Source: Escherichia coli (lineage in GTDB: Bacteria > Pseudomonadota > Gammaproteobacteria > Enterobacterales > Enterobacteriaceae). Taken from it: a stretch of DNA of 64,000 bases. Position numbers: made by a program. This document shows positions 43,101 through 46,100 of the stretch, one piece after another. The DNA lies in the NCBI RefSeq assembly GCF_050320075.1, contig NZ_CP190019.1; one strand, written 5' to 3'. Numbering within the stretch: position 1 is the stretch's first letter; the number at the start of each line of letters is the position of its first letter.

Positions 43101-46100
43101 AGAAAAACTTCGTGCAAAAACCGAACGGCAGATACAGGAAGCACAGGAGCGAATCAGCGCACTTCAGGAAGAAATGGCGGAAACGCTGGGTGAGCAATAT
43201 GACCCGGTACTGCCATCCGCCCTGCGCCAGTCTTCAGCCCGTAAACCGTTACCGGCCTCACTTCCCCGTGAAACCCGGGTTATCCGGCCGGAAGAGGAAT
43301 GCTGTCCTGCCTGTGGTGGTGAACTCAGTTCTCTGGGATGTGATGTGTCAGAGCAACTGGAGCTTATCAGCAGCGCCTTTAAGGTTATCGAAACACAACG
43401 TCCGAAACAGGCCTGTTGCCGGTGCGACCATATCGTGCAGGCACCAGTACCTTCAAAACCCATTGCACGCAGTTATGCCGGAGCGGGGCTTCTGGCCCAT
43501 GTTGTCACCGGGAAATATGCAGACCATCTGCCGTTATACCGCCAGTCAGAAATATACCGTCGTCAGGGAGTGGAGCTGAGCCGTGCCACACTGGGGCGCT
43601 GGACAGGTGCTGTTGCTGAACTGCTGGAGCCGCTGTATGACGTCCTGCGCCAGTATGTGCTGATGCCCGGTAAAGTCCATGCTGATGATATCCCCGTCCC
43701 GGTCCAGGAGCCGGGCAGCGGTAAAACCCGGACAGCCCGGCTGTGGGTCTACGTCCGTGATGACCGTAACGCCGGTTCACAGATGCCCCCGGCGGTCTGG
43801 TTCGCGTACAGTCCGGACCGGAAAGGTATCCATCCACAAAATCACCTGGCCGGTTACAGCGGTGTGCTTCAGGCCGATGCTTACGGTGGTTACCGGGCGT
43901 TATACGAATCCGGCAGAATAACGGAAGCCGCGTGTATGGCTCATGCCCGGAGAAAAATCCACGATGTGCATGCAAGAGCGCCCACCTACATCACCACGGA
44001 AGCCCTGCAGCGTATCGGTGAACTGTATGCCATCGAGGCAGAGGTCCGGGGCTGTTCAGCAGAACAGCGTCTGGCGGCAAGAAAAGCCAGAGCCGCGCCA
44101 CTGATGCAGTCACTGTATGACTGGATACAGCAACAGATGAAAACACTGTCGCGTCACTCAGATACGGCAAAAGCGTTCGCATACCTGCTGAAACAGTGGG
44201 ATGCACTGAACGTGTACTGCAGTAATGGCTGGGTGGAAATCGACAACAACATCGCAGAGAACGCCTTACGGGGAGTGGCCGTAGGCCGGAAAAACTGGAT
44301 GTTCGCGGGTTCCGACAGCGGTGGTGAACATGCGGCGGTGTTGTACTCGCTGATCGGCACATGCCGTCTGAACAATGTGGAGCCAGAAAAGTGGCTGCGT
44401 TACGTCATTGAACATATCCAGGACTGGCCGGCAAACCGGGTACGCGATCTGTTGCCCTGGAAAGTTGATCTGAGCTCTCAGTAAATATCAATACGGTTCT
44501 GACGAGTCGCTTACTTTTTGTATGAGGTGCTGCTTTTTTGTTCGCTGGCAGGCTTCAGGCGTGCGAATGCCTCCGGTGCGGGCCGGATTATTCAGAAGAG
44601 GTCACTTTCAGGGGGAAGCTGTGGCCAGCCGGCTGTAATTACGGTTACGTGACAGAATCATGCGCTCTTTCACACGACGCTCCACTTCGCGTTTTACCGC
44701 CTCACGATTGGCAGTGAAGCGCCCTTCCGAGATTTCACGCGTCAGCTGCCGTTTCACCAGGGTGACGATATCCTGACGTTCCCTGTTCGCATCACGACGC
44801 GCACGGGCACGCTTTATTCCACGGGACTTAAGCTCTGTCTGGTAACTGCGGAAACGCTCACGCACAAAACGCCAGGCTTTCGCTATCAGTTCATCCATAC
44901 CCAGGGTATCCAGCCCCTGCTTTTTGCGCTGTCTGTTTTCCCATTCAACACGACTGCGGCGCGCAGCAACCACTGCATCCTCAGACACATCAAGGGCGGC
45001 AAATAACGCCGGTGTGAACGTGATATCGGTCGGAATGTAGCACCCGATAAGCGGATCATATTCCGTCTGGTAGGTAATCAGTCCCAGCTCTGCAAGGAAC
45101 GTCAAGGCTCGGGAGGCCCGGGTGATGGAGAGTTTTCCGGCAGCAGACTCCGTCGCCAGTCCGCACTCAATGGCCAGCGTAGTGATGGAGCACTGGACGC
45201 GGTTGGCCAGCGGGTCATAGTGAAAACACAGCCCCTGCAGCAGCGCATCAATAGCCCGGCGACGCAGTACCGGTGGCATGCGCCGACGCAGTCCCTTCGA
45301 ACGGGCATGTGCCACATGAATGGCGAAATCAAAACGGGAGGTGAAGCCCACCGCCTTTTCCATCAGTTTTTCGCAGAACTTCAGCGTTCCGGCACCTTCA
45401 CGGGGTGTGAACACCGGATTCGGATTTTTAACCTGTGAATAGTATTTTTGAAGGAGATCAGCCATGTCCCCCTCCAACACTATTCCCCCTCCTACGGGCG
45501 GTAACTAGCTCGTCTGGGCCGACACGTAAAGTTTCGAACATATCTGGTCTGGACCAGATGGTTCCTCCATCAAAAGCGATGAGATGAAGATCATTATCAA
45601 GAGTTTTGAGGGCTCTCCAAACACGAGTGTATGAACCTCCACTACAAACTGAAAGCTCTTTAACAGATAAGTTAACTTTGTTCGTATCAGGGATGTAGTG
45701 TGCGCACATTACTTGTACGAGGGAAACATAAAAACTAACCATCGACGCGCTGATTTTATTTTTACGTTTGCCATGCGCTATTGCAAGCAAACCTCTGATG
45801 AAGATCAGATGCTTGAAGGAGTCAAAATGAGCCCTTTTCTGGAGAAGGCTGCAAAACGGGTGAGGATACTTGCTGGAATCAATGTGAAGATCTGATTCAA
45901 TCCCACCCGCTATTACTGAATGTGTTTCATGATTAGCCACACCATCCTGCACTTACAATGCACAGAAGGAGTGAGCACAGAAAGAAGTCTTGAACTTTTC
46001 CGGGCATATAACTATACTCCCCGCATAGCTGAATTGTTGGCTATGCGGTTTTATGGGGCCCCGGTAATCTTTCTAGTCGCCAAACTTGAAGAAGATTATC

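Follow-up and report, generated by a model that had tools for sequence, protein, structure and literature searches.

A truncated RepA-like cistron between tap and repA1 in a RepFIC-type replicon of Escherichia coli and its possible role as a translational relay

The 64,000-nucleotide stretch of Escherichia coli DNA analysed here (NCBI RefSeq assembly GCF_050320075.1, contig NZ_CP190019.1; hereafter the window, at its full length) carries on its minus strand a replicon of the IncFII family in which the leader-peptide gene tap and the initiator gene repA1 are held apart by a block of DNA that is absent from classical FII replicons. The block is occupied by an open reading frame (ORF) of 160 codons, which is related to the N-terminal domain of the initiator and is interlocked with both of its neighbours by overlapping start and stop codons. 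In the reading that we favour, this short ORF would be the middle cistron of a translational relay from tap to repA1. The features on which the argument rests are as follows, with coordinates of the whole stretch.

46239-46496, minus strand: copB/repA2, an 85-amino-acid transcriptional repressor of the repA promoter (ORF read in the window)
46025-46113, plus strand: CopA antisense RNA gene (Rfam RF00042, 93.6 bits against a gathering score of 60, E = 1.5e-17)
45933-46007, minus strand: tap leader peptide, 24 codons with a TAA stop, identical to WP_001442103.1 ('RepA leader peptide Tap') of identical plasmids
45933-45940, minus strand: junction 1, GTGGCTAA, where the short-ORF start overlaps the tap stop
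45458-45940, minus strand: short ORF, 160 codons, predicted to encode a diverged N-terminal winged-helix domain of IncFII RepA ('RepA-N')
45466-45940, minus strand: extra block of 475 base pairs (bp), absent from classical FII replicons by alignment to the block-less relative L002
45467-45475, minus strand: Shine-Dalgarno sequence of repA1, GGAGGGGGA, within the last codons of the short ORF (read directly)
45458-45465, minus strand: junction 2, ATGGCTGA, where the repA1 start overlaps the short-ORF stop
45437-45485, minus strand: predicted hairpin over the repA1 Shine-Dalgarno sequence, the ATG and the short-ORF stop (fold prediction; inverted repeat I4)
44608-45465, minus strand: repA1, a 285-amino-acid IncFII initiator (TIGR03474, 580 bits against a cut-off of 446.9; NF010313, 618 bits)

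The extra block and its two junctions

The CopB/RepA2 gene, tap, CopA and an IncFII RepA are all present in the window; what is missing is the direct overlap of the tap stop with the initiator start, repA1 lying 475 nucleotides further on. The copB/repA2 coding sequence (CDS) is labelled 'replication regulatory protein RepA' in a 100% identical plasmid, and its counterparts in related loci carry PF10723. The CopA-like antisense RNA lies opposite the repA leader, with a promoter-like site just upstream of its gene (45990-46018) and its first stem-loop at 46021-46048. A sub-threshold match to the repZ regulatory pseudoknot (PK-repZ; 27.2 bits against 44; 45987-46112, minus strand) covers CopT and the start of tap, and may have its source in the relatedness of FII and I-complex leaders.

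A first-pass annotation of this DNA had placed the end of tap about 470 bp before the repA1 ATG. The distance from the tap stop to that ATG (45465) was measured as 467 nucleotides, all of it filled by a single open frame. When the locus was aligned to that of plasmid pZ1323HSL0022-2 (L002), which has the classical direct tap/repA overlap, GTGACTGA, and a RepA 95% identical to the one in the window, the extra DNA came to exactly 475 bp. Its G+C content is about 0.45, against 0.56 in repA1.

The short ORF was compared across eight loci, namely the window and the related loci L003, L006, L007, L008, L010, L011 and L012. Its frame is open from a GTG at 45952 (164 codons) to a TGA at 45460-45458. 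The first-pass annotation had described this 164-codon frame, with its TGA overlapping the repA1 ATG (ATGGCTGA) and a ribosome-binding site before repA1; the stop and the ribosome-binding site (GGAGGGGGA, just upstream of the ATG) are as described, and it is the start that has to be moved. The conserved start is the GTG at 45940, a codon that overlaps the tap stop as GTGGCTAA. We assign the ORF 160 codons because this position is GTG or TTG in all eight lineages, because the upstream GTG at 45952 is replaced by GCG in five of the eight, and because the Prokaryotic Genome Annotation Pipeline (PGAP) chose the same 45940 start in identical plasmids. It is exactly the place at which repA starts in classical FII replicons.

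Both junctions share the geometry of the classical tap/repA overlap, xTG-NNT-RA, in which start and stop overlap within 8 nucleotides, and this geometry is kept in lineages down to 65% protein identity. At junction 1 the overlap of leader stop and short-ORF start reads xTG-NCT-RA across lineages, in the same geometry as GTGACTGA of the block-less L002. At junction 2, ATGNCTGA is retained in seven of the eight lineages and is ATGA in L008. A GGAGG lies 6 nucleotides before the repA1 ATG and is conserved in all lineages. The sequence features expected of termination-reinitiation, a start/stop overlap and a Shine-Dalgarno sequence inside the upstream ORF, are thus found in the window and conserved in eight lineages. 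A programmed frameshift fusing the short ORF to RepA1 is unlikely, because the frame relation of L008, where the long variant of the short ORF overlaps repA by ATGA and not by ATGNNTGA, differs from that of the other lineages.

The Shine-Dalgarno sequence and start codon of repA1 lie inside a predicted hairpin whose 3' arm is formed by repA1 codons 3-10. Junction hairpins of differing sequence, likewise enclosing a Shine-Dalgarno sequence and an ATG, are predicted in L013, L017 and L024 (z = -2.85, -2.55 and -0.98, respectively), so that both elements fall within a predicted hairpin in four architecture types whose sequences differ. A weak consensus scan found no sigma-70-like promoter on the coding strand inside the block, and an internal promoter for repA1 was set aside by that scan only. 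On the minus strand, a Shine-Dalgarno-like motif occurs twice, 17 nucleotides apart, as GTAGGAGGGGGA (45467-45478) and GTTGGAGGGGGA (45484-45495). Among the eight aligned lineages only the window has three extra bases at this doubled motif, the protein there reading ARRRG against AAR followed by R, M or S in the other seven.

A diverged RepA N-terminal domain and its recurrence

From its first codons onwards, the short ORF encodes a product that aligns colinearly with the N-terminal ~170 residues of IncFII RepA. Against the adjacent RepA1, BLASTP gave 32% identity between residues 73-150 and 74-170 (E = 2e-7), and the family model TIGR03474 scored 16.3 bits over profile positions 21-116 only, far from its cut-off of 446.9; the 160-amino-acid product is therefore not a full-length member of the IncFII RepA family but a homologue of its N-terminal domain only. 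In a multiple alignment with RepA the order is kept throughout, and the winged-helix region of the short protein lacks 9 residues at one place and 11 at another. AlphaFold2 models residues 24-155 as a winged-helix domain at a predicted local distance difference test score (pLDDT) of about 90. In a model of RepA1, a single domain of this kind (residues ~25-160) precedes long C-terminal helices; searches of the PDB with the short-ORF alignment and with RepA1 matched no solved structure. The two models indicate, therefore, that the short protein retains the sole globular domain and lacks the C-terminal half. Homology and predicted fold identify the short ORF as a diverged repA gene cut to its 5' half, which encodes a winged-helix domain without the helical, basic C-terminal half.

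A full-length RepA with an N-terminal half close to the short ORF, which might have been its donor, was not found in PLSDB, in 5.8 billion clustered proteins or in 1.8 billion representative proteins. A profile search of the last set returned as nearest outside relatives other short proteins of 176-241 amino acids, and no full-length RepA. Databases label the short ORF 'hypothetical protein' and once 'putative replication protein RepA', and the pAPEC-1 paper names it 'repA, a component of repFIC'. No role for it was found in the accessible full-text literature, a scope that does not extend to the original RepFIC papers of 1987-97. The tail of the short ORF might come from a second tap, by a deletion within a tandem replicon that joined repA' to the 3' end of 'tap. 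The peptides are similar (NSVGGGHG and VSAGWCG), but at the nucleotide level the likeness does not exceed that of random windows, of which 4-68% score as well.

The loci of the outside relatives have a layout that matches the window: the leader stop overlaps a GTG or ATG start, an ORF of 180-192 codons follows, and the initiator ATG overlaps the stop of that ORF. These ORFs match TIGR03474 from position 1 to about 165-179, where all of the recurring short ORFs are truncated, and are 35-50% identical to residues 1-175 of FII RepA. In L013, L014, L015, L017, L019 and L020, ORFs of 183-192 codons, 41-50% identical to FII RepA 1-175, precede a RepA of 337-339 amino acids, and in L024 a 180-codon ORF precedes a RepA of 293 amino acids. 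The window family is tied to the others by the L024 short ORF, which matches the window ORF at E = 1e-24 and RepA1 at E = 3e-27. Versions of the L013-type short ORF at 60-80% identity are present in about 468 PLSDB records; the one plasmid of the 337-339-amino-acid class with informative typing is IncI-gamma/K1, and in the two records inspected for annotation (L019 and L020) PGAP annotates two consecutive 'RepA' genes. Short-ORF G+C content is usually below that of the initiator. Judged from these annotated and aligned loci, the design of tap, short RepA-N and initiator recurs with two other initiator classes, making three classes and roughly a thousand sequenced plasmids.

Conservation, selection and distribution

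Diverged short ORFs at 65-83% protein identity were found in Klebsiella, Citrobacter, Salmonella salamae, Lelliottia and metagenomes. Family members are 156-163 amino acids long and come from five genera, with two variants of 198-199 amino acids that have an N-terminal insertion of ~40 residues. The order copB, leader, short ORF and 285-amino-acid RepA is kept in all eight loci compared, as are both start/stop overlaps, and the short ORF is open in every one of them (159-160 codons; 199 in L008). It is the only one of the six frames that is open for at least 159 codons in all eight, and it is not a chance ORF.

Variable sites fall at codon positions 1, 2 and 3 in the numbers 55, 48 and 90 of 158. 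Pairwise ratios of nonsynonymous to synonymous substitution rates (dN/dS) are 0.18-0.46 for the short ORF; in six bootstrapped pairs they are 0.29-0.43 with 95% intervals below 1, and 0 to 0.45% of bootstraps reach 1. The pooled ratio of nonsynonymous to synonymous differences per site (pN/pS) rises from 0.25 in the winged-helix core to 0.38 in the preceding helices (residues 28-80) and to 0.61 in the disordered, low-confidence N-terminus. The short protein is under purifying selection, which is strongest in the winged-helix core. The first-pass annotation had allowed that plasmids of this type might share the spacing with no conservation of the frame; the opposite was found.

At the DNA level, the block is the most conserved part of the replicon in the eight lineages, with a mean pairwise identity of 83-92% against 65-80% in repA and 70-88% around copA/tap. 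Synonymous divergence is low as well, with a dS of 0.2-0.65 in the block where the adjacent repA has 0.7-2.5; in the second architecture class (L013, L019, L020) the short-ORF dS is likewise 0.57-0.69 against an initiator dS of 1.7-2.4. For RepA, L007 and L006 are of one type (dN 0.07), but their blocks differ more (dN 0.15) than do those of L007 and L012 (dN 0.09), and because the relationships of block and repA are incongruent in this way, recombination appears to be frequent. A gene on the opposite strand was considered as the cause of the low dS (a 65-amino-acid ORF, 45698-45895, plus strand) and rejected, the longest antisense and alternative-frame ORFs differing between lineages.

The 467-nucleotide block is present at an identity of at least 99% in 498 PLSDB plasmids, and in 518 in all, mostly from Escherichia; carriers include pAPEC-O1-ColBM, pVir68, pAPEC-1 and the NRG857c plasmid. 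Plasmids identical or nearly identical to the window are typed as IncFIC by MOB-suite. In the F plasmid of TG1 (L005, NZ_CP128219.1), copB and tap are present and codons 1-91 of the short ORF match at 97.8% identity; the match breaks off there, at the known Tn1000 interruption of F's RepFIC. From the IncFIC typing and the match to the remnant in F, the window replicon is thus assigned to the RepFIC type (IncFIC) of the IncFII family. RepFIC was reportedly first sequenced in 1987, by Saadi, Maas, Hill and Bergquist, and the RepFIC of P307 is said to have been isolated as an autonomous basic replicon in work by Saadi and colleagues from 1984 and 1987.

Several variants of the block and its surroundings were noted in passing. 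At codon ~130 of the short ORF (~45551-45553) the window has a serine (TIWSRP) where nearly all family members have a phenylalanine (TIWFRP). An identity of 100% over the 467 nucleotides is seen in only five PLSDB plasmids, and the first 25 others among the matches listed are all at 99.8%, a difference for which this codon suggests itself as the source. In the long variant (L008, 3001-3600; P0011 and P0017; 198-199 codons) the insertion of ~40 residues starts with VAEQN and resembles the L024 short ORF. Rare E. coli variants (P0056, P0061, P0066, P0054, P0058, P0064) are shortened after residues 128 and 137, fuse tap in frame to the short ORF (182 amino acids) or switch the C-terminus to unrelated sequence; they were seen on 1-8 contigs apiece, whereas the cluster with the intact 160-amino-acid form has 461 members. 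In L004 (NZ_CP059918.1), ISEc12 lies immediately upstream and the match to the short ORF starts at residue 14, so that L004 and F represent two independent disruptions. One E. coli plasmid of 245 kilobases, NZ_CP031295.1, carries a block-bearing FIC replicon together with a block-less FII-type tap-repA junction (~127867 and ~228926). In many block-less plasmids PGAP annotates an 83-amino-acid 'replication protein RepA' CDS antisense to copA/tap (L002, 1879-2130, minus strand; L027), probably an annotation artefact over the CopA gene.

Outside the replicon proper, the DNA directly upstream of copB holds a hok/sok locus for post-segregational killing (46917-47075, minus strand, within 46780-47091); the match to sok RNA reaches 90.2 bits, with a gathering score of 59, and a Hok/Gef CDS is annotated in an identical plasmid. 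Between hok/sok and finO, the Rfam family AS-pc02 ('antisense to pHK01_099') matches at 47528-47713 on the plus strand (181.9 bits against a gathering score of 40).

A relay from tap to repA1, weighed against its alternatives

The observations on the block, its junctions and its conservation suggest that a three-cistron relay, from tap through the 160-codon ORF to repA1, has replaced the single coupling of tap to repA, and that the protein made from the middle cistron is functional; we consider this the likely reading, with real room for doubt. The first-pass annotation had raised a rewired coupling as one possibility, and the conserved geometry of the junctions and the conserved frame both speak for it. 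The direct tap-repA coupling that it had taken for the classical arrangement is borne out by the block-less relatives and by the account of R1 control in PMC8053102. In the relay, CopA would block the translation of tap, and without that translation the short ORF would go untranslated. Without ribosomes terminating at ATGGCTGA, the sequestered start of repA1 would not be used, and termination there would open the hairpin and allow reinitiation at repA1. By these steps antisense control would be kept across the 475 extra bases, and the short protein would be made at least as often as RepA1. On the strength of its layout, antisense control in this replicon probably reaches repA1 through two coupled translation steps.

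Since purifying selection tracks the predicted fold, a functional winged-helix protein is favoured over a passive spacer, and the protein could be a DNA-binding or RepA1-interacting modulator of initiation. A further suggestion, which we put forward only tentatively, is that the short RepA-N protein acts in trans in copy control, as an anti-initiator, a co-initiator or an incompatibility determinant, using its winged helix to bind RepA1 or the DNA sites of RepA1. CopA, tap and this protein might then make up a portable control cassette behind which different initiators (of 285, 293 and 337-339 amino acids) could be exchanged without leaving the shared antisense control.

Several observations weigh against the relay with a functional middle protein. 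That the short ORF is translated, and that repA1 is coupled to it, is read from geometry; no Pfam family matches the short ORF, and its dN/dS of ~0.3 points to weaker constraint than that on RepA (0.04-0.25). The hairpin of the window is only marginally above shuffled sequences (z = -1.38) and has no covariation, the sequence being invariant, and no compensatory changes. The low synonymous divergence of the block is unexpected and is not explained by coding selection alone; recombination moving the block among replicons, or an extra constraint on the mRNA, could account for it. At least 3,696 PLSDB records have the direct tap-repA junction, one of them with a RepA 95% identical to that of the window, and the block is therefore dispensable for FII replication. 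Finally, all nine carriers whose typing was inspected are multi-replicon, with IncFIB and/or IncFIA or others in addition, and none has FIC as its sole replicon, so the replicon could be idle in some of them; FIC has also been stated to be non-functional in F and P307, a statement repeated in PMC4539522.

The chief alternative to the relay, which we regard as unlikely though it deserves the most weight among the alternatives, takes the block for a passive relic, the dead 5' end of an older repA that stayed behind when two FII-like replicons recombined, open only because ribosomes must read through it, its peptide having no function. Such an origin would suit the wide divergence of the window ORF, which is 24-32% identical to RepA against 41-50% for the other short ORFs and has lost 9 and 11 winged-helix residues, and it would also suit the common block-less replicons with near-identical RepA, the differing histories of block and repA in L007, L006 and L012, and the rare nonsense, fused and IS-truncated variants. 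Selection for an open frame alone, however, predicts a dN/dS near 1, and 0.29-0.43 is observed, with constraint graded by predicted structure in a domain that is modelled with high confidence; nor would a relic be expected to end, as the short ORFs of three initiator classes do, at the same domain boundary. It is improbable that the whole FIC region is idle or decaying, RepFIB or RepFIA driving replication and the extra ORF being carried along without function. The multi-replicon carriers, the statement on F and P307, the loss of the F copy by insertion after codon 91 and the cutting of another copy by ISEc12 would all fit this, but CopA, tap and copB are intact, purifying selection acts on the short ORF as well as on RepA, both junctions are intact across five genera, and the RepFIC of P307 reportedly replicated on its own.

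Insertion into the copy-control region, the other possibility raised by the first-pass annotation, was not borne out. Under this explanation the block would be a mobile element or an independent gene, a small transposable cassette with its own gene and signals that entered between tap and repA1, and we give it very little credence. Its G+C content is indeed below that of its flanks, and both of its ends share TGGCT(A/G)ATC, but the shared motif is the start region of repA present twice. A transposon or a miniature inverted-repeat transposable element was rejected, the block having neither terminal inverted repeats nor a transposase; the segment is filled by a RepA-like ORF that matches RepA in order from its first codons, without a promoter-like site on its coding strand. 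In every record with annotation listed, the block sits at the tap/repA junction of an FII-type replicon, and in none of them was it found elsewhere. It belongs to the established RepFIC/IncFIC replicon and is no one-off insertion.

The relay with a functional middle protein would matter beyond this replicon. In the Enterobacteriaceae, resistance and virulence genes are carried mainly on IncF plasmids, and the CopA-tap-RepA circuit of R1/R100 is the textbook model of antisense copy control. A conserved gene for half an initiator lies inside that circuit in ~500 sequenced plasmids, among them ColV/ColBM virulence plasmids and F itself, and in ~470 with a different initiator. If the relay operates, classical copy-number models, incompatibility predictions and plasmid-curing cassettes omit one expressed component. 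An active short protein would represent a regulator of a new type, derived from an initiator, and would account for the ability of F-type replicons to exchange initiators while remaining under control; the trans-acting cassette, if real, would supply a mechanism for initiator swapping among F-type plasmids. The replicon type itself is already known, and its reading as one with a conserved, truncated-initiator relay cistron appears to be undescribed in the searchable literature.

In comparison with known systems, the window has the four components of the IncFII replicons of R1 and R100 (NR1), namely CopB, CopA, tap (RepA6) and repA, and its tap stop overlaps the next start in the same 8-nucleotide geometry. 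In R1, CopA represses RepA by blocking the translation of Tap, to which repA is coupled (PMC8053102, citing Blomberg et al., 1992). The difference is that tap, coupled to the initiator in R1/R100, would be coupled in the window to a 160-codon half-initiator, and repA1 in turn to that ORF; with the half-initiator in this position, two serial couplings would therefore be needed, and a second protein would be made with every RepA1. With RepFIC of P307 and F no difference in sequence was noted, and the window is a member of this replicon type. In the I-complex plasmids (ColIb-P9 repY-repZ and pMU720 repB-repA), a sequestered Shine-Dalgarno sequence is exposed only when ribosomes translate an upstream ORF whose end lies at the start of the initiator (PMC8053102). 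A comparable hairpin is predicted over the repA1 start of the window; the upstream ORF of the I-complex, however, is a short leader that has no relation to the initiator and depends on a pseudoknot for its effect, whereas that of the window is predicted to encode a folded initiator domain. The closest likeness in layout is to the loci with a short RepA-N and a full RepA in tandem in F-type plasmids of Klebsiella and Salmonella (such as pCFSAN024229 and pESBL_DR09a), which have the same order of copB, tap, short ORF and initiator, 8-nucleotide overlaps, a short-ORF dN/dS of ~0.2 and a dS lower than the initiator's. They differ in that their short ORF is better preserved (41-50%; TIGR03474, E = 1e-36 to 1e-39) and in that an initiator of the 337-339-amino-acid class lies downstream. 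Shortened initiators that modulate replication are also known from the short forms of R6K pi and from TrfA-33/44 of RK2, which are nested products of one gene made from internal starts. The likeness to these is one of analogy only, a partial initiator beside a full one, in that the candidate partial initiator of the window is a separate, diverged N-terminal paralogue placed upstream.

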